Origin: a virus
Taxonomy: Duplodnaviria; Caudoviricetes
Virus record (IMG/VR): IMGVR_UViG_3300049172_000013
Coordinates: 1-25,805 of that record
Length of the DNA: 25,805 nucleotides
Reading direction: 5' to 3' (one strand)
In this document: piece by piece, positions 1 to 5,871 of the stretch
Layout of the letters: the number at the start of each line of letters is the position of its first letter
How positions within the stretch are numbered: the stretch's first letter is position 1
Notes under the pieces: generated by a model
The model's input: only the letters and a program-made list of their open reading frames with translations
What the model was told of the DNA's origin: nothing
Databases searched by the model: none
Made by a program: the position numbers and the translations under genes

Positions 1-519
1 CTGCCGGACAGCACCGGCACGCAGCGGCGGGCGATCGACTACGACACCAAACCCGCAAACGACAACACGCCCACAGCCGAGCGCGTCCAACACGGCCGGG
101 ACAATTTCGAGCGTCTGCTAGTCCGTGGCCAGATTGACGAGGACAAGGAAGTTGCCGCGACGCTGTATGCGGCAGGTCTGCGCTACGAGACCGAGCACGG
201 CCTAGCCTACGCCAGCGGCTACAGCTCGCCCGACTATGCCAAGCCCGTCGTTGATGGCTCTGGTGGCACAGTGACGCCGATTACCGAGCGGGCGGAGGTG
301 GCTAGGGGCAGAATACGCGAGGCCCGCAAGGCAATGGGAGAGCACGCCGACGTGGTCGATGCCGTCGTAATCCACGGCATGACGCTCGAGGCTGCTGGTC
401 GGAGGTATTGCGGTTACCGAAGCGCCAAGATGGCGAGCGCCGCGGCGTCCGTGCATCTCAACAGCGGATTGCGTGTGCTTGCTGTCCTCTATGGAGTGGC
501 TGTTCGGAGGGCGGCATGA
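1..519 (+). CDS. 5'-truncated DUF6456-like phage protein, putative late transcription regulator
   Basis: Frame 1 is open from base 1 to TGA 517-519 (LPDSTGTQRRAIDYDTKPANDN...YAAGLRY...VDGSGG...VVIHGMTLEAAGRRYCG...LNSGLRVLAVLYG); helical HTH-like C-terminus; lies upstream of late genes. The ORF track start at 271 is internal. Confidence 0.65.
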   Translation: MPDSTGTQRRAIDYDTKPANDNTPTAERVQHGRDNFERLLVRGQIDEDKEVAATLYAAGLRYETEHGLAYASGYSSPDYAKPVVDGSGGTVTPITERAEVARGRIREARKAMGEHADVVDAVVIHGMTLEAAGRRYCGYRSAKMASAAASVHLNSGLRVLAVLYGVAVRRAA

Positions 520-1264: not shown

Positions 1265-1512
1265 TGATCTGCAATAATCCATACGACGAGATTAACGACC
1301 TGAAAGAAGCGCATTCGGCAGAGTTGGCTGAGTTGCATGATTGGCAACTCGAAATCATGCGGGACATGCTTCGCCGTTACGACACACTGCGCAATGCGGC
1401 GCTTGAAGTGCTGAAGCATCGGGTTGGAGATATGCCGACCTCCGGACATCTCCGCGACGCAGACGCCAGCAGAACTGCGCTGAAGATTTTGGCGAAGGCA
1501 GTGGAGAATTGA
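1264..1512 (+). CDS. hypothetical helical phage protein
   Basis: GGGAGG RBS upstream; TGATG coupling; MICNNPYDEINDLKEAHSAEL... Confidence 0.7.
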   Translation: MICNNPYDEINDLKEAHSAELAELHDWQLEIMRDMLRRYDTLRNAALEVLKHRVGDMPTSGHLRDADASRTALKILAKAVEN

Positions 1513-1748
1513 TGATGGACATTAAAAACGCACCGTTTTTCGTAAAGGCTTCGATTTACGCCGGTGGTCTATTCGGGATTATCGTATCGGTCTTGGCCGT
1601 ATTTGGCGCTATATTCGCAGCGGTAATCTATTTCGTGGTGAGCATCCTGCAACTGCCAAGCGCTATTCAGCCCCCGGCCACAATGGCTATTTTCTTGTTC
1701 GTCGTATGCTTGATCGCCGCCGTTGTTGCTGCCTTGGAGGACGAATAA
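1512..1748 (+). CDS. small membrane protein with two hydrophobic segments
   Basis: GGAG RBS, TGATG coupling; two long hydrophobic stretches and acidic C-terminus (LEDE). Confidence 0.7.
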   Translation: MMDIKNAPFFVKASIYAGGLFGIIVSVLAVFGAIFAAVIYFVVSILQLPSAIQPPATMAIFLFVVCLIAAVVAALEDE

Positions 1749-1750
1749 TC

Positions 1751-1770
1751 CCACGGTGCACCACGGTACA
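1751..1770. repeat. tandem 10-bp direct repeat CCACGGTGCA/CCACGGTACA
   Basis: Seen directly, one mismatch; immediately upstream of an AT-rich TATAACTTAAATAA tract. Confidence 0.75.
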
Positions 1771-1800
1771 CCTCATAGCGTATAACTTAAATAACAGTTC
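1751..1800 (+). promoter_or_regulatory. candidate late promoter
   Basis: Repeat plus TATAAC -10-like hexamer at 1781-1786, just upstream of the structured RNA region; no consensus -35. Confidence 0.35.
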
Positions 1801-2265
1801 GAGATGTGCCTAGCACACCTCCACTCACTTCGGGACAAACCGCCGCCGGGATACGGGCAACGCCCTCCGCTAGCAGGCCGCGCGTTCCGAATACCCAAGG
1901 CGAAGCAGGCAGGCGCAGGCGGCATTTGTCCGCGCCGCACGGGTCGCAACCGCGCAGCCTTCCTTCGCCCTTCCATTCCGAACCGCGCTTTGCTCCTTTC
2001 GCGCGCTTCGGAACAAGCGGCGGGTTTGAGCGCCTGGCTGGTGGCCAGAGTCCTTTGGGACAGCTCCCCGCCGCTATAGAATTCGTTGCGGTAGCCATTC
2101 CGCCTAGATACCTGACGGGTCGGCAATGCTTCGGCAACCGGGATCGTCTCGGCCCCCACCTTGGTTTTATGGCCTTGGATGGTTGCGCCACGCCGCCGCG
2201 GGACAAAACAGCGCTATCGGCTCGGGTTGATCGCCGGGTACGTGCTGACAAATCCGCGGGGCAAC
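1801..2265 (+). ncRNA. series of structured RNA domains of unknown family upstream of the tRNA
   Basis: Consecutive closing helices: 1829-36/1884-91, 1899-1905/1963-69, 1976-82/2007-13, 2016-24/2067-75, 2088-2101/2177-88, 2192-2203/2253-62; no credible protein in this interval. Confidence 0.55.
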
Positions 2266-2270
2266 AATTC

Positions 2271-2344
2271 GCCCCTATAGTTTAACGGCAGAACACCTGT
2301 TTTGTACTCAGGTGGTCAGGGTTCAATTCCTTGTCGGGGCTCCA
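2271..2344 (+). tRNA. tRNA-Thr (anticodon TGT)
   Basis: Cloverleaf: acceptor GCCCCTA/TCGGGGC, D arm GTTT-AACGGCA-GAAC, anticodon arm CCTGT-TTTGTAC-TCAGG, T arm CAGGG-TTCAATT-CCTTG, encoded CCA at 2342-2344. Confidence 0.9.
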
Positions 2345-2349
2345 ATGTC

Positions 2350-2466
2350 GGGTTTGTACCAACCGTGCCCTGCATGGCCGCGCTCCCGAGTAACGTCCGC
2401 CGCAGACGTGCGAGCACAGGCGTTGCGTAAAAAGGTGGGTTGGTGACAGCCGGAAAGACGGCTCCA
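2350..2466 (+). ncRNA. C4-antisense-like structured RNA
   Basis: Long irregular hairpin (ACCAACC 2358-64 / GGTTGGT 2438-44; ACGTC/GACGT apex) followed by GTGACA-GCCG-GAAAGA-CGGC-TCCA, a motif I recall from phage C4-family RNAs; not verified. Confidence 0.45.
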
Positions 2467-2473
2467 AGTTTGC

Positions 2474-2527
2474 GTGCAATATAACACACATTCAGCCGAT
2501 TTACTTGAAATGTGTTCTATATTGCAC
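2474..2527. repeat. AT-rich imperfect inverted repeat
   Basis: GTGCAATATA (2474-83) / TATATTGCAC (2518-27) and inner ACACATT (2486-92) / AATGTGT (2509-15). Confidence 0.75.
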
Positions 2528-2552
2528 ATTCACCACCGCCCAAGGAGCGCCC

Positions 2553-2750
2553 ATGAACAACGTTCGCCTGATTAGGGACAACCACGGTGCGCTCCATATC
2601 GCAGTAGGCGACCACTATGCAGTTGGCGCTAGGGTGTCCAGCATCGCTACTATCGAAGGCGATCTGTCGGCCGTAGTCATCATCCCCATGAAGAACATCA
2701 CGGTCGAGGAGCAGTCGACTGTGGTGCCGTTTGTGCGTCGGGATGCGTGA
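2553..2750 (+). CDS. hypothetical phage protein (65 aa)
   Basis: AAGGAG RBS before ATG 2553; MNNVRLIRDNHGALHIAVG... Confidence 0.75.
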   Translation: MNNVRLIRDNHGALHIAVGDHYAVGARVSSIATIEGDLSAVVIIPMKNITVEEQSTVVPFVRRDA

Positions 2751-3045
2751 TGACCGCACAGTAGACACCAGGCCATGGCGTAAATGGTATGGCACGGCAC
2801 GGTGGCACAGGCTGCGTGAGTTACAGTTGGCTCAGCAGCCTCTATGTCAAATGTGCATACAGTATGAAGACGTAACCGTCGCCGATACAGTCGACCATGT
2901 GAAGCCCCATAAGGGTGACGTGCTGCTGTTCTGGGATGCAGACAATCTGCAAAGTCTATGCGCCGCGTGTCATAATAAAGACAAGCAGCGCATTGAACGG
3001 GGCGGTGACGCAACGCGCGTCGGACTCGATGGCTATCGGTCCTGA
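2743..3045 (+). CDS. terminase-associated HNH endonuclease (HK97 gp74-like)
   Basis: WYGTARW...QPLCQMC...VDHVKPHKGD...FWDADNLQSLCAACHN; directly upstream of TerS. Confidence 0.92.
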   Translation: MRDDRTVDTRPWRKWYGTARWHRLRELQLAQQPLCQMCIQYEDVTVADTVDHVKPHKGDVLLFWDADNLQSLCAACHNKDKQRIERGGDATRVGLDGYRS

Positions 3046-3054
3046 TTGTGCACC

Positions 3055-3178
3055 GCACAATGATTGCGCAACTTTATTGCGTGAAACATTCTCATTTGTT
3101 GCGTGAAACATCGAGTCGGCGCAAGATTGTTGCCTACCCCCCCTATCGATGTCTGGGGCCTCCAGGCCCCGCACCGGC
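3055..3178. promoter_or_regulatory. putative cos / packaging initiation region
   Basis: Between HNH and TerS; two TTGCGTGAAACAT repeats (3077-89, 3099-3111) inside an imperfect inverted repeat, then a C7 run and GGGGCC-TCCA-GGCCCC hairpin (3155-70). Confidence 0.55.
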
Positions 3179-3215
3179 GTCCAAGCTCAATGTTAGCGCT
3201 AATACAGGTTTTCCT

Positions 3216-3694: not shown

Positions 3695-4318
3695 ATGACT
3701 AAGGGCGTGAACCCCGGCACTGGTCGGGGCTGCAGGTTCAAGGACCGCTCCGGAACAAGAAACGGTCGTTTAGTTTTTGTGAGGTCGCTCGGAGAGGACG
3801 TCCACCGTCATCATGTGTGGGAGGCCGTATGCGACTGCGGCAACGTAACAACCACGGCGACGCCCAACAAAACGCTTTCGTGCGGATGTCTGCAAAAAGA
3901 AACCGCCGCGAAAGTCCAGCGGGGCAAGGCTTTGCCGGAAGATGAGCGCAAGCGCCGCGCCGATGCAAACAGGATAGTGCAGCGTCGCCGGCGCAAGACA
4001 GACCCGGTCTTGGCAATGCAGGCCAGGCTGAGTCGGCTGCATAGATTTGCACTGATGCGCGTTGGAGCCGTTAAAAATTCTCCGACGCTTAAAAAGCTTG
4101 GCTATACGGCGACTGAATTCGCCGACCACATTGAGCGGCAATTCAGTGGCGGAATCGGCTGGCATAATATGGATCGGTGGCAAATAGACCACATAGTCCC
4201 GGTAAGCACAGCCAAAGACGAAGCTGACGTCGTTGCCCTCAATCAGTTATCAAACTTGAGGCCGATGTGGGCACTATCAAACAATCAAAAGAAAAACCAG
4301 AGGGTAAGCCTTCTGTAA
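3695..4318 (+). CDS. free-standing HNH homing-endonuclease-like protein
   Basis: N-terminal GRLVFV...W..VCDCGN...SCGC zinc motif and C-terminal WQIDHIVPVS...NLRPMWALSNNQKKN HNH motif. Confidence 0.8.
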   Translation: MTKGVNPGTGRGCRFKDRSGTRNGRLVFVRSLGEDVHRHHVWEAVCDCGNVTTTATPNKTLSCGCLQKETAAKVQRGKALPEDERKRRADANRIVQRRRRKTDPVLAMQARLSRLHRFALMRVGAVKNSPTLKKLGYTATEFADHIERQFSGGIGWHNMDRWQIDHIVPVSTAKDEADVVALNQLSNLRPMWALSNNQKKNQRVSLL

Positions 4319-4323
4319 AGACC

Positions 4324-5871
4324 ATGACCAGAGGCGAGCGAGTTATCGCCTTTATCCACCGATTCTGCAGGGTGCCAGAGGGAAATCTGCTTGGCAAGCC
4401 CGTTCAATTACTGGAATTCCAGCGCAAGTTCATCCTAGAAGTTTACGACAACCCGGCCGGCACGTCCCGCGCCTACCTGTCGATCGCGAGGAAGAACGGC
4501 AAAACTGGTTTGATTGCCTGCCTGCTGCTGGCGCATATCGTCGGGCCGGAGGCTTACCAGAACGGCCGGATCGTGTCGGGTGCCAGGTCACGCAAGCAGG
4601 CAGCCGAAGTTTTCAATTACGCCTCTAAAATGGTGATGATGTCGCCGGAGCTTACGAAGCTCGCGCGCATTATCCCGTCGGCCAAAACGATTATCGGCTA
4701 CGCAAAGAACGTCGAGTACCAAGCCATCTCGGCCGAGGCCAAAGGGGCGCACGGCGGCTCGCCAATCCTCGCCATCCTGGACGAGGCTGGGCAGATCAAG
4801 GGGCCAAACGACGACTTTGTCGAAGCTATTGAGACGTCGCAGGGTGCCTATGAAGGCAAGGCCATGCTGTTCGTCATCTCGACGCAGGCGGCGACCGACA
4901 ACGATTTGTTTTCGCGCTGGATAGACGACGCCGAGACGTCGAAGGATCCTCGCATTGTCAGCCACGTTTATTCAGCTCCGCCCGATTGTGACCTTCTAGA
5001 CCGTTCCGCCTGGGCTGCGGCTAACCCGGCGCTCGGGATTTTCAGGGCGCTAAAGGACGTTGAGGACTTCGCGAATATAGCGGCGCGTATGCCGACGTCG
5101 GAGGCCAGCTTTCGCTGGCTGTTCTTAAACCAGCGCATTGACGCGTCGGCGCCGTTCGTTGCTCCTGGCGCTTGGAAGGCTTGCGACGCCCCTGTGCTCG
5201 AGAGTTTCGAGGGGCTGCCGGTATTTGGCGGGCTCGATCTTTCGGAAGTTTCCGACCTTACGTCGCTCGTGCTTATGGCACCGAAGGACGGCGTCTGGCA
5301 CGTCAAGCCGACGTTCTGGCTGCCCGGCGACAGCCTGCGCGAAAGAGCGCGGGCTGACCGCGTTCCTTACGATATCTGGCACGACCAGCAGCTTCTGGAA
5401 AAAACACCAGGCCCAACGGTTGAATACGAGTACATCGCCGAGCACCTGCGCGGCTTGTTCGACACGCTAGACATTCGCAAGATTGCGTTTGACCGTTGGA
5501 ATTGGCGGCACCTTCGCCCCTGGCTCTTGAAGGTCGGCTTTAGCGACGACCAACTTGAAGGCGACAATGCCGTATTCTCAGAGTTCGGGCAGGGCTTTCA
5601 GTCCATGTCGCCGGCGCTGCGGGATTTGGAAAGCCTAATCCTGAACAAGAAGCTTGCCCACGGCGGGCAACCCGTCCTGACCATGTGCATGATGAATGCG
5701 ACGGTCAAAAAAGACCCGACTGGCAATCGCAAGTTGGACAAGCAGAAGTCACGCGGGCGAATTGATGGCGCCGTGGCCCTCGCCATGGCTGCAAGTTGCG
5801 CTGGCACGTATGAGCATCCCGCAGAAACAACTTCCTTCTGGCAAGTCTTAGACCCTGCCGGCTCCTACTAA
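4324..5871 (+). CDS. terL: terminase large subunit
   Basis: Walker A IARKNGKT, Walker B AILDE, ISTQ coupling motif, nuclease GLDLS..DLT and KSRGRIDGAVA; likely start MTRGERVIAFI at 4324. Confidence 0.96.
   Translation: MTRGERVIAFIHRFCRVPEGNLLGKPVQLLEFQRKFILEVYDNPAGTSRAYLSIARKNGKTGLIACLLLAHIVGPEAYQNGRIVSGARSRKQAAEVFNYASKMVMMSPELTKLARIIPSAKTIIGYAKNVEYQAISAEAKGAHGGSPILAILDEAGQIKGPNDDFVEAIETSQGAYEGKAMLFVISTQAATDNDLFSRWIDDAETSKDPRIVSHVYSAPPDCDLLDRSAWAAANPALGIFRALKDVEDFANIAARMPTSEASFRWLFLNQRIDASAPFVAPGAWKACDAPVLESFEGLPVFGGLDLSEVSDLTSLVLMAPKDGVWHVKPTFWLPGDSLRERARADRVPYDIWHDQQLLEKTPGPTVEYEYIAEHLRGLFDTLDIRKIAFDRWNWRHLRPWLLKVGFSDDQLEGDNAVFSEFGQGFQSMSPALRDLESLILNKKLAHGGQPVLTMCMMNATVKKDPTGNRKLDKQKSRGRIDGAVALAMAASCAGTYEHPAETTSFWQVLDPAGSY

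Follow-up and report, generated by a model that had tools for sequence, protein, structure and literature searches.

Introduction

The tRNA arrays of phages are commonly taken to serve codon supply. Small RNAs also get cut from tRNA transcripts, an example being the 3′ external spacer of the E. coli glyW-cysT-leuZ transcript. Late-gene antitermination systems of phages include the lambda pR′-tR′ leader (6S RNA) with Q, the HK022 put RNA and N/boxB, and Stx phages carry tRNA genes at the equivalent place upstream of their late genes.

The closest described counterparts of the RNA considered here belong to bacterial hosts. Two family papers (PMC4615179, PMC3927594) describe small RNAs with CCUCCUCCC loops, from hosts in the same bacterial orders, as anti-Shine-Dalgarno (anti-SD) RNAs, and the first gives the cuckoo/ar14 architecture as two to four adjacent hairpins with CCUCCUCCC in each loop (PMC4615179). 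Neither paper uses the words phage or prophage.

Here, we analyze positions 1801-2466 of a 25,805-nt stretch of viral DNA, which we call the window. An initial annotation had described this interval as seven or eight structured units, A to G with an embedded tRNA, and had interpreted them either as a cassette of processed tRNA-like RNAs or as one large RNA; its observation is partly confirmed and its interpretation partly supported. Three RNA elements hold up, namely a tRNA-Thr, a two-hairpin motif spanning 1976-2075 and a separate short hairpin (Table 1), and the rest (units A, E and G, probably also B) is GC-rich spacer that shows no conservation and may be left over from tRNA genes. Sequence comparison with related loci, including covariation, indicates that at least one structured RNA other than a tRNA is embedded in the tRNA arrays of the relatives.

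Results

The interval is non-coding and belongs to a temperate phage of Hyphomicrobiales type, where it lies ahead of the packaging genes HNH-terS-TerL; after the first HNH gene come terS, another HNH-like ORF and TerL. The protein encoded upstream has a weak DUF6456 match. Second-codon-position GC is 0.62-0.68 in the four long ORFs inside 1773-2285 vs 0.35-0.49 in ten flanking genes, and searches of these ORFs against Pfam and PHROG gave no match in either. For these two reasons a protein-coding reading was dropped, bearing out the earlier view that the roughly 670 nt hold no credible protein, and the placement of the region at the head of the packaging and late genes as non-coding + strand RNA is likewise supported. 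The GC content of the interval (0.60-0.66) is higher than that of the flanking genes. Taken as one piece, the 666 nt fold no better than shuffled sequence (z −0.61 on the + strand, with 5/20 shuffles equally good, and z −0.96 on the − strand). DNA homology searches with 1750-2550 gave no match in the phage database, in 47 HNH-related loci or in 80 metagenome loci. Among 401 Hyphomicrobiales genomes they gave only two matches of about 35 nt (1896-1931 and 2405-2443), each in one genome and with an E value of 5e-5 or weaker, the counterpart of 2405-2443 lying in unrelated sequence; in 30 TerL-related and 80 terS-related loci, matches fell only at the tRNA, the small ORF and a 35-nt piece. Apart from those two short genome matches, none of these collections holds a homologue of units A, B or E or of the greater part of G. 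TerL identity with the closest relative found is no higher than 86%.

The units differ in stability. Each was compared with 200 dinucleotide shuffles, and because the unit boundaries had been set by eye around stems, the per-unit z-scores are optimistic. Units B, C, D and F beat their shuffles (z −1.95, −3.43, −3.71 and −2.60), and their stems are present in the minimum-energy fold; B is borderline, with 7/200 shuffles equally stable. Units A, E and G do not depart from chance (z +0.30, −0.08 and −0.10). The stable stemmed units of the initial annotation are therefore upheld by fold and shuffles for C, D and F, narrowly for B, and not for A, E, G or the interval as a whole. The arrangement of seven or eight back-to-back units gives way to a different one, in which C and D are a single element and A, E and G are without stability or homologues.

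Table 1. Features in and around the interval, in window coordinates.
Feature	Position	Strand	Remarks
Direct repeat CCACGG-N4-CCACGG	1751-1766	+	Just past the last upstream ORF; equivalent at L049 3643-3658
Unit B, 77-nt Y-shaped fold	1899-1975	+	Closed by GGCGAAG/CUUCGCC; 3′ end CUUCCA
Motif 5′ flank, pyrimidine-rich CUUCCA	1970-1975	+	YUUCCC(A) or a tRNA 3′ end in most relatives
Conserved motif, hairpin 1 (unit C)	1976-2013	+	z −3.43; helix 1 of alignment A6
Conserved motif, hairpin 2 (unit D)	2016-2075	+	z −3.71; helices 2-3 of A6
Unit E	2088-2190	+	z −0.08; unsupported as structured RNA
Unit F core, hairpin CG-GCUCGG-[GUUGAUCG]-CCGGGU-A-CG	2218-2242	+	Bulged A; recurs in four related loci
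tRNA-Thr (anticodon UGU), encoded CCA	2271-2344	+	ARAGORN; Rfam RF00005, 55.8 bits, E 6e-11
Part of unit G with a homologue, including hairpin AGCCG-GAAAGA-CGGCU	2431-2465	+	86% identity over 35 nt to L049 4862-4896
AT-rich imperfect palindrome	2474-2527		z −4.5 on +, −4.8 on −
First downstream genes: 65-aa ORF; HNH endonuclease	2553-2750; 2731-3045	+	PHROG and Pfam matches

Units C and D form one conserved RNA motif of two hairpins on the + strand. Hairpin 1 consists of the stems UUCCGAA/UUCGGAA and CGCGC/GCGCG and the loop UUUGCUCCUUUC, which contains CUCC; hairpin 2 has a closing stem AGCGGCGGG/CCCGCCGCU, an inner GAGC/GCUC helix and two variable apical hairpins, and fits the family pattern of a GC-rich closing stem GCGGCNGG.../...CCNGCCGC with an inner GAG/CUC. 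Since a MAFFT alignment of the window with its closest relative, L049, was out of register over C-D, covariance models were used, and the pair counts come from alignments fitted to the structure of the covariance model. Compensatory changes occur at 26/28 modelled pairs of the whole motif, including 12/12 pairs of helix 1 (88.9% of cells paired) and 11/13 pairs of helices 2-3 in A6. Paired cells make up 90.4% in the motif vs 68.4% in shuffles, and the covariation score is 0.400, vs 0.111 for shuffled sequences (0/500 reach 0.400) and 0.03-0.05 for slid partners. A structure-blind analysis of 22 sequences with MAFFT and RNAalifold recovered hairpin 2 only, with 10 of its pairs, 5 of them showing compensatory changes. 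The idea that the structure exists at the RNA level on the + strand stands for the relatives, where 95 G-U cells are found vs 12 A-C cells, and not for the window itself, in which the energies of B, C and D do not favour that strand; the strand evidence comes from the relatives only.

The most constant part of the motif is the loop of hairpin 1, which contains CUCC in 66/66 distinct sequences and usually reads CCUCCUC, an anti-SD-like sequence. In 69/73 single-sequence folds, CUCC stays unpaired within a hairpin loop; in the remaining four an earlier CUCC had been scored, and the loop stretch is unpaired there too. Within hairpin 2, a conserved GGUUGAG/CUCCC helix occurs in two circularly permuted forms. 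A U-tract (at least 5 T in 8 nt) follows hairpin 2 in 59/72 distinct relatives, giving it a terminator-like shape that is common in the family and not universal: the window, L105, L052 and L057 have the structure but no such tract. In the window, hairpin 2 is followed by TATAGAATTC, with 3 T in the best 8-nt stretch, and with its loop also unlike the usual one, the window's copy is a divergent family member. Immediately 5′ of the motif, CCA is found in 25/58 distinct flanks; where a tRNA abuts, its 3′ end reads ...GCAACCA.

The distribution of the motif was followed with three models, R1 from the window's sequence alone, a second model, R2, and R3 from 81 relatives with the window left out. 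R1 found look-alikes in 4/78 other loci and in 14/80 loci, all 18 on the + strand and upstream of HNH/terS. R2 placed 13 of the latter 14 identically; the R1 match in L110 (3746-3834) was not confirmed, R2 putting the motif at 2900-2978. R2 matched 64/80 terS-related viral loci, 9 of the 16 misses having less than 110 nt upstream of terS, and 21/79 loci from other sources, with one match per locus and 85/85 on the + strand. R3 scored window 1976-2075 at 64.2 bits (E 4e-9), the runner-up place in the window reaching 15.5 bits. The hairpin 2 pattern by itself picked out 24 viral contigs, every one of which carries the complete motif, and among metagenome loci chosen by TerL the motif is present in 15/80, always on the + strand. 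Five whole host genomes gave three matches, all within known prophages. R2 gave no match at E ≤0.01 when run on 150 additional genomes sampled from the order, a weak search because only 29 candidates were scored per genome. The motif is thus single-copy and prophage-specific, and 73 distinct sequences of the family were assembled; its carriers include prophages of Rhizobium, Agrobacterium, Mesorhizobium, Shinella, Bosea and Devosia genomes. Wherever loci could be oriented by a neighbouring gene, every match is on the late-gene strand, in or beside tRNA arrays, and always between an upstream regulatory-looking gene and HNH-terS; in the window it lies 196 nt ahead of the tRNA-Thr and about 650 nt ahead of HNH. 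No Rfam family matches it, ar14 included, and we found no published description in the literature searched, a coverage that leaves out most subscription journals.

The annotated tRNA-Thr is confirmed (Table 1) and resembles the tRNA-Thr of L074, L156 and L142; its exact 29-nt pattern had no match in viral contigs. At this position, 18/30 TerL-related genome loci carry one to six tRNAs, all on the + strand, array size ranging from 0 to 6. In 25/85 loci the 3′ end of a tRNA-Met lies 1 nt ahead of the motif, and a tRNA begins 11-15 nt after it in 10/85, the motif-to-tRNA spacing among relatives extending from 11 to about 1300 nt. In many relatives the tRNA-Met fused to the motif is initiator-type (C1 opposite A72). 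Within the window, neither Rfam RF00005 nor ARAGORN at 80% of its threshold found a further cloverleaf in units A, B, E, F or G, and comparison with 69 tRNAs from related loci gave no resemblance above shuffles; lowering ARAGORN to 60% added seven calls, four of them on the − strand, which are noise.

Among the other units, B occupies the slot in which 25/85 relatives have their tRNA-Met, and may be either a lineage-specific structure or a decayed tRNA. The AATTCG reported ahead of E and the tRNA is present at 2080-2085 and 2266-2271. Unit E begins 13 nt past the motif, behind GAATTC and within the tRNA offset of the 10 relatives mentioned above, and we speculate that it is decayed tRNA DNA. 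The hairpin of unit F recurs in L049 (twice), L096, L100 and L102, always on the + strand, with a GG/CC core, a covarying outer stem, the loop GUUGAUCG and the bulged A; the second L049 copy has the loop GUUAGUCG and no bulged A. In 1.38 Mb of related loci, the broader pattern GTT[AG][AG]TCG with a closing stem of ≥4 bp has 10 occurrences on the + strand and one on the −. Covariation in related loci, a test on which the annotation had made its units depend, is present for C plus D and for the outer stem of this hairpin, and A and E have no homologues to compare. In unit G, 2431-2465 is the sole part with a homologue, and its L049 counterpart lies 11 nt ahead of a block to which the small ORF, together with its ribosome-binding site, aligns. 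DNA alignment with L049 picks up again at 2542, and the palindrome at 2474-2527, which is inserted with respect to L049 and unique within the window, is a candidate operator or RNA hairpin. The CCACGG repeat occurs once in the window, and L049 has its equivalent at the same relative place. Since 37/100 shuffles contain at least one match at ≤2 mismatches, the repeat is not significant alone; it is a candidate binding site or promoter element of the RNA-bearing transcript. It was rejected as a general upstream signal, being present in the window and L049 only, and a promoter scan of 1750-1800 found no sigma-70 site.

Discussion

We propose, at a probability of about one half, that the motif is a small regulatory RNA of the phage, derived from a tRNA transcript, that masks ribosome-binding sites. 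It would be transcribed together with the tRNAs, and since a tRNA-Met so often ends 1 nt before it, tRNA processing would free its 5′ end; the 3′ end may be freed by termination or by RNase P cleavage of the next tRNA. The freed RNA would act in trans, as the host anti-SD cuckoo small RNAs do, its CUCC loop pairing with Shine-Dalgarno sequences and blocking translation initiation. In the window copy, which has no U-tract, transcription would therefore pass hairpin 2 and read through into the tRNA-Thr and late genes. When the loop was scanned for duplexes across the whole window, no site of extended complementarity emerged; the best non-self duplex (−15.3 kcal/mol) and its like are ordinary GGAG-type sites, so no specific target is predicted. 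The small-RNA model leaves the two permuted forms of the GGUUGAG/CUCCC helix unexplained. We also consider, as a long shot, that the motif mimics the 3′ tail of 16S rRNA and forms with the initiator tRNA-Met a two-part "translation-initiation takeover" cassette, in which the RNA would cover the Shine-Dalgarno sites of messages from the host or from rival phages, the phage would provide its own initiator tRNA, and the GGUUGAG/CUCCC helix, an internal pair of SD-like and anti-SD-like strands, would hold the RNA latent until processing.

The constant position and orientation of the motif just ahead of the late genes are fitted equally well by a cis-acting leader. Hairpin 2 would then terminate a short leader transcript ahead of the late operon, in analogy to lambda pR′-tR′, and hairpin 1 would be recognized by an antiterminator protein or by RNA polymerase, like boxB or put RNA, so that read-through into the tRNAs and packaging genes is regulated. 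Such a leader would account for a single-copy element on the late-gene strand between a regulatory-looking gene and HNH-terS, for the intrinsic-terminator shape in most distinct sequences, and for an invariant loop on covarying stems, which is the signature of a protein-binding hairpin; the CCACGG repeat, a possible regulator site common to the window and L049 some 225-250 nt upstream, and the weak DUF6456 match of the upstream protein point the same way. We nevertheless regard it as rather unlikely. The tRNAs flank the motif so closely on both sides that a "terminator" would split the tRNA array in two, four members including the window's keep the structure without a U-tract, and the exact identity of the loop with the anti-SD sequence would be coincidence.

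A different question is what the rest of the interval represents. It could be the remnant of a longer tRNA array, in which B and E are mutated tRNA pseudogenes and the tRNA-Thr and the C+D motif alone are still under selection, a reading that is compatible with the small-RNA proposal and not its opponent. The length of B, its CCA end and its tRNA-Met slot suggest this, as do the start of E behind GAATTC at 13 nt past the motif, exactly as for the tRNA-Met of L112 and L114, the variable number of tRNAs in the arrays of relatives, and the GC content in excess of the flanking genes. We hold it as a tentative possibility, since neither unit has significant similarity to any of the 69 tRNAs, relaxed thresholds give no cloverleaf, and a hand alignment of E with tRNA-Met is statistically unsupported. 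The cassette of seven or eight processed tRNA-like RNAs (A to G) that would serve as antisense regulators, decoys or antitoxins, as the initial annotation had it, draws on the same tRNA arrays, on the CCA ends of B, E and the tRNA, on the AATTCG copies, on the stability of B and F, and on the fact that one non-tRNA RNA is real; it is very unlikely given that A, E, G and the whole region fold as chance predicts, that only 2271-2344 is tRNA-like by Rfam, by ARAGORN at 80% and by the tRNA comparison, and that no counterpart of A, B, E or most of G turned up in the loci searched. The other original reading, a single large ornate RNA of GOLLD/ROOL type across the whole interval, is close to refuted. 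A long GC-rich non-coding phage stretch beside a tRNA and the gaps of 700-1700 nt at this place in relatives are what it would lead one to expect, but the whole region is no more stable than shuffles, only about 75-100 nt are conserved, the distance from the motif to the tRNA is highly variable, and Rfam gave no hit other than tRNA (E ≤10 in the window and L049, E ≤5 in seven relatives).

In a whole group of Rhizobiales prophages, a covarying RNA that is not a tRNA is thus a constant passenger of the tRNA array. Its invariant loop is the anti-SD sequence, also used by the hosts in the regulators cuckoo, CcsR and NfeR1. Should it act in trans, the temperate phages that infect plant-associated bacteria would plug into, or imitate, the post-transcriptional network of their hosts, and the physiology of lysogens could be affected. 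The motif makes a clean family missing from Rfam, and several of the host strains are cultivable.

GOLLD and ROOL are phage-borne and often lie beside tRNAs, as here; they measure 500-800 nt, vs about 75-100 nt for the conserved part of this element, and neither their models nor those of other large phage RNAs in Rfam match the window or L049 at E ≤10 or seven relatives at E ≤5. Like the lambda pR′-tR′ leader, the motif sits just upstream of late and packaging genes and comprises a conserved-loop hairpin followed by a terminator-shaped one; unlike that leader, it resides in tRNA arrays, and several members including the window's have no U-tract. As with small RNAs cut from tRNA transcripts, it abuts a tRNA 3′ end (1 nt, 25/85) and often precedes a tRNA, lying 11-15 nt before the next one, so tRNA-processing enzymes would define its ends; different from the glyW-cysT-leuZ spacer sponge, it forms two hairpins that are conserved and covary, one of them with an anti-SD loop, and its processing is predicted.

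The ar14 model (gathering score 58.8 bits) has no match in the window at E ≤1, and ar14 is absent from the Rfam scan at E ≤10 in 1400-3000 and at E ≤5 in seven relatives. The likeness to the cuckoo/alpha-r14 RNAs (Rfam ar14, RF02344; CcsR1-4, NfeR1) lies in design. Those RNAs belong to Rhizobiales and Rhodobacterales, the same host clade, and share with the phage motif highly variable, covarying stems, a conserved C/U-rich anti-SD loop CCUCCUC(CC) and a terminator-like hairpin at the end; they too are thought to occlude ribosome-binding sites (PMC4615179, PMC3927594). The phage motif has one loop-bearing hairpin vs two to four, and its loop is CCUCCUC(U/C), or UUUGCUCCUUUC in the window, vs CCUCCUCCC. 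Unlike cuckoo/ar14, it has a hairpin 2 with the conserved GGUUGAG/CUCCC helix, of which the window's copy keeps the CUCCC inside the helix, and it is carried by prophages and tightly joined to tRNA genes.

Coding potential and folding of the interval

The four long ORFs of 1773-2285 have a second-position GC of 0.62-0.68, versus 0.35-0.49 in ten flanking genes, and none has a Pfam or PHROGs match; a protein-coding reading was rejected on these two grounds, and the interval 1801-2466 is non-coding, in agreement with the initial annotation, which had seen no credible protein there. The embedded tRNA-Thr that it reported is also confirmed, as the only tRNA found in the interval by ARAGORN and Rfam. 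The proposed array of eight back-to-back units (A-G and the tRNA) does not stand: units A, E and G fold at chance (Table), the whole 666 nt are not unusually stable relative to shuffles (z -0.61 on the + strand, with 5 of 20 shuffles equally stable, and -0.96 on the - strand), and the interval consists mostly of unconserved spacer. The per-unit z-scores are themselves flattering because unit borders were chosen around stems, and fold energies are so similar on both strands that the window by itself does not indicate the strand.

Beyond the tRNA and the small ORF, primary-sequence searches (phage database, 401 Hyphomicrobiales genomes, HNH-, TerL- and terS-related loci and metagenome loci) returned almost nothing for the interval, except a 35-nt piece of unit G that the window shares with a Bosea prophage (L049), its closest relative. 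Rfam covariance models gave no credible family besides tRNA at E up to 10 for the interval and L049, or at E up to 5 for seven relatives; the few other rows for the window and L049 lie far under gathering scores, and none overlaps the C+D motif (hairpins 1 and 2, units C and D) on the + strand.

Features of the window in and around the interval (z for units, folding energy against 200 dinucleotide shuffles each)
Feature	Position	Strand	Remarks
Upstream ORF	1-519		weak DUF6456 match, 24.2 bits (cut-off 26.3)
Small membrane-protein ORF	1509-1748		upstream neighbour of interval
CCACGG-N4-CCACGG	1751-1766		direct repeat
Unit A	1829-1891		z +0.30
Unit B	1899-1975		z -1.95
Unit C (hairpin 1)	1976-2013	+	z -3.43
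Unit D (hairpin 2)	2016-2075	+	z -3.71
GAATTC or CAATTC	2080-2085, 2266-2271
Unit E	2088-2190		z -0.08
Unit F	2192-2262		z -2.60
Unit F core hairpin	2218-2242	+	loop GUUGAUCG, GG/CC core, covarying outer stem, bulged A
tRNA-Thr(UGU)	2271-2344	+	ARAGORN and Rfam
Unit G	2350-2466		z -0.10
35-nt piece	2431-2465		within unit G
AT-rich imperfect palindrome	2474-2527		outside interval; arms ~22 nt; folded as 2470-2533, z -4.5 and -4.8, far below shuffles
Small ORF	2553-2750		downstream module
HNH	2731-3045		downstream module
Gap	3046-3215		~170 nt
terS			downstream module
Second HNH-like ORF	3695-4318		HNH_4; PHROG endonuclease VII
TerL			downstream module

A conserved RNA structure

By eye, L049 shows sequences resembling C, D and F, ordered as in the window, with different stem sequences. 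A covariance model made from window 1976-2075 as a single sequence found 4 look-alikes among 78 other loci and 14 among 80 terS-related viral loci, all 18 on the + strand and upstream of HNH/terS. A second model, built from 14 of these look-alikes, confirmed 13 of the 14 terS-set matches at the same coordinates; the match in L110 was not so confirmed and was rejected. This model placed the motif in 64 of the 80 terS-related loci (9 of the 16 without a match have <110 nt upstream of terS) and in 21 of 79 other sources, the window among them, with a single match per locus and 85/85 on the + strand. A third model, from 81 relatives with the window left out, was applied unfiltered to both strands of the entire window; it scored 1976-2075 at 64.2 bits (E 4e-9) and no other place above 15.5 bits, so the window's membership of the family is not circular.

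All 24 viral contigs matching a pattern for hairpin 2 only carry the full motif (6 were already in other locus sets, by contig name), 15 of them with tRNAs on its strand. Among 80 metagenome loci selected by TerL, 15 carry it, each on the + strand and each with TerL identity of at least 71%; five whole host genomes gave three matches in total, all inside prophages already found. The motif is specific to these prophages, with 73 distinct sequences overall, some contigs recurring across sets (e.g., L050 and L103).

In the 85-row alignment (A6; 66 distinct rows), which was fitted to the covariance model and is hence biased toward structure, paired cells amount to 90.4%, versus 68.4% in shuffles, compensatory changes occur at 26 of 28 pairs, and the covariation score is 0.400, versus 0.111 in shuffles (observed value reached by 0/500) and 0.03-0.05 with slid partners. 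Because this fitting favours structure, two independent checks were run. Of the single-sequence folds of the 73 distinct sequences, 69 leave the loop CUCC unpaired within a hairpin loop; for the remaining 4 an earlier CUCC was the one tested, and the printed folds also leave the loop stretch unpaired. Structure-blind MAFFT alignment of 22 diverse members followed by RNAalifold recovered 10 hairpin 2 pairs, 5 with compensatory changes, and did not recover hairpin 1, the stems of which MAFFT misaligns. The motif alignment contains 95 G-U cells against 12 A-C cells, so the structure belongs to the + strand RNA and not to DNA palindromes; the strand evidence, which the initial annotation had sought in G-U pairs of the stems, comes from the relatives. 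Units C and D together form one conserved RNA structure, read from the + strand, with CUCC as the invariant part of its hairpin 1 loop.

In the family, a pyrimidine-rich 5' flank (YUUCCC(A); CUUCCA in the window) precedes hairpin 1, whose 10-12 bp stem is variable and whose loop always contains CUCC, usually CCUCCUC. A linker, usually CGUG, leads to hairpin 2, in which GCGGCNGG/CCNGCCGC forms the stem and GGUUGAG and CUCCC form an inner helix. Most members have the shape of a terminator, with at least 5 T in the 8 nt after the hairpin 2 stem in 59 of 72 distinct sequences. The inner helix is found in two circular permutations within the same closing stem (GGUUGAG...CUCCC versus UCCC...GGUUGAG, e.g., L142 versus L078 in A6), so that what is conserved seems to be the bulged helix as such or each of its strands on its own. 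The window copy is a divergent member: its hairpin 1 loop is UUUGCUCCUUUC, it carries GGUUUGAG and two additional apical hairpins, and it has no U-tract (TATAGAATTC there). L049 has a second CUCCUCCC stretch (4810-4817), directly after tRNA-Trp and downstream of its main motif.

tRNAs and the remaining units

The motif is set in prophage tRNA arrays. At least one tRNA lies within the scanned stretch in 56 of 85 motif loci; the 3' end of a tRNA-Met(CAU) falls 1 nt before the motif in 25, and in 10 a tRNA begins 11-15 nt downstream of it. CCA directly precedes the motif in 25 of 58 distinct flanks and is frequent even in members without a tRNA. Bacterial initiator tRNAs are marked by C1 opposite A72 and by three G-C pairs in the anticodon stem. 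The motif-abutting tRNA-Met (L142 2761-2837, L136, L167, L078, L146, L130) has a C opposite A atop the acceptor stem and the 3' end ...GCAACCA, and is initiator-like in this respect, with an incomplete anticodon-stem G-C run. GAATTC or CAATTC recurs directly before tRNA 5' ends, and also after hairpin 2 in members without a U-tract (L112, L114, L049, L111), possibly as a conserved leader of pre-tRNAs.

The suggestion that further units are tRNA-like was not borne out. Unit B (77 nt, CCA at its end) occupies the tRNA-Met slot of relatives and shows no tRNA-likeness by Rfam, relaxed ARAGORN or comparison with 69 related tRNAs; unit E begins behind GAATTC, 13 nt downstream of the motif, in the same way as tRNA-Met in L112 and L114, and has no significant similarity to tRNAs of related loci. 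Units A and G have no support besides the 35-nt piece, and the searched genome and metagenome loci yielded no relatives close enough for a covariation test of A, B, E or G. The unit F core hairpin recurs in L049 (twice), L096, L100 and L102, always on the + strand; the second L049 copy differs in its loop, GUUAGUCG, and in lacking a clear bulged A. A wider pattern, GTT[AG][AG]TCG with a closing stem of 4 bp or more, has 10 matches on the + strand and one on the - strand in 1.38 Mb of related loci.

Genomic setting

The TerL of this 25.8-kb viral contig is 70-86% identical to prophage TerLs in Bosea, Rhizobium, Neorhizobium, Mesorhizobium, Shinella, Devosia and Agrobacterium genomes. One to six + strand tRNAs lie directly upstream of HNH in 18 of 30 TerL-related genome loci, and most of the 30 have a non-coding-looking gap of 700-1700 nt at the same place. 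The upstream ORF has a counterpart at L049 2340-3395; in most relatives its position is taken by an ORF that encodes 300-430 aa and has no Pfam match. The CCACGG repeat, directly 3' of the last upstream ORF, is found only in the window and L049 (3643-3658), a pair that also shares the upstream protein at 65% identity, and is a possible regulator site. The palindrome sits between the 35-nt piece and the small ORF's ribosome-binding site and occurs only once in the window. L049 lacks it and has 11 nt between the two flanking sequences; an operator and a hairpin for RNA processing are its possible roles. The second HNH-like ORF, between terS and TerL and overlapping the TerL start, looks like a mobile insertion because only some relatives have it (L073, L054, L074). 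The gap at 3046-3215 separates HNH from the part of terS matching PHROG 5601 and, by analogy with HNH-dependent cos phages, may hold a cos site.

Discussion

The initial annotation was partly right: one real, uncatalogued structured RNA adjoins the tRNA, in place of an array of eight units. We give roughly even odds (about 0.5) to a reading by analogy with host small RNAs, in which the C+D RNA would be co-transcribed with the tRNAs, freed by tRNA processing and termination, and predicted to pair with Shine-Dalgarno (SD) regions through its loop, as host anti-SD small RNAs do. A scan of the window yielded no specific target of the loop. The main rival, which we consider unlikely, is a cis-acting leader in which a terminator and a protein-binding hairpin would gate read-through into the tRNAs and late genes.

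We found no published account of such an RNA in prophages or linked to tRNAs, and the C+D motif is a structured RNA not catalogued in Rfam. The cuckoo family (ar14, RF02344) is defined by 2-4 hairpins with CCUCCUCCC, described as anti-SD, in each loop, and neither of the papers describing it uses the words phage or prophage (PMC4615179, PMC3927594). The ar14 model has no match in the window, and the phage motif lies outside the family both by this model and by its hairpin and loop composition; it would nevertheless work like one cuckoo module joined to a terminator.
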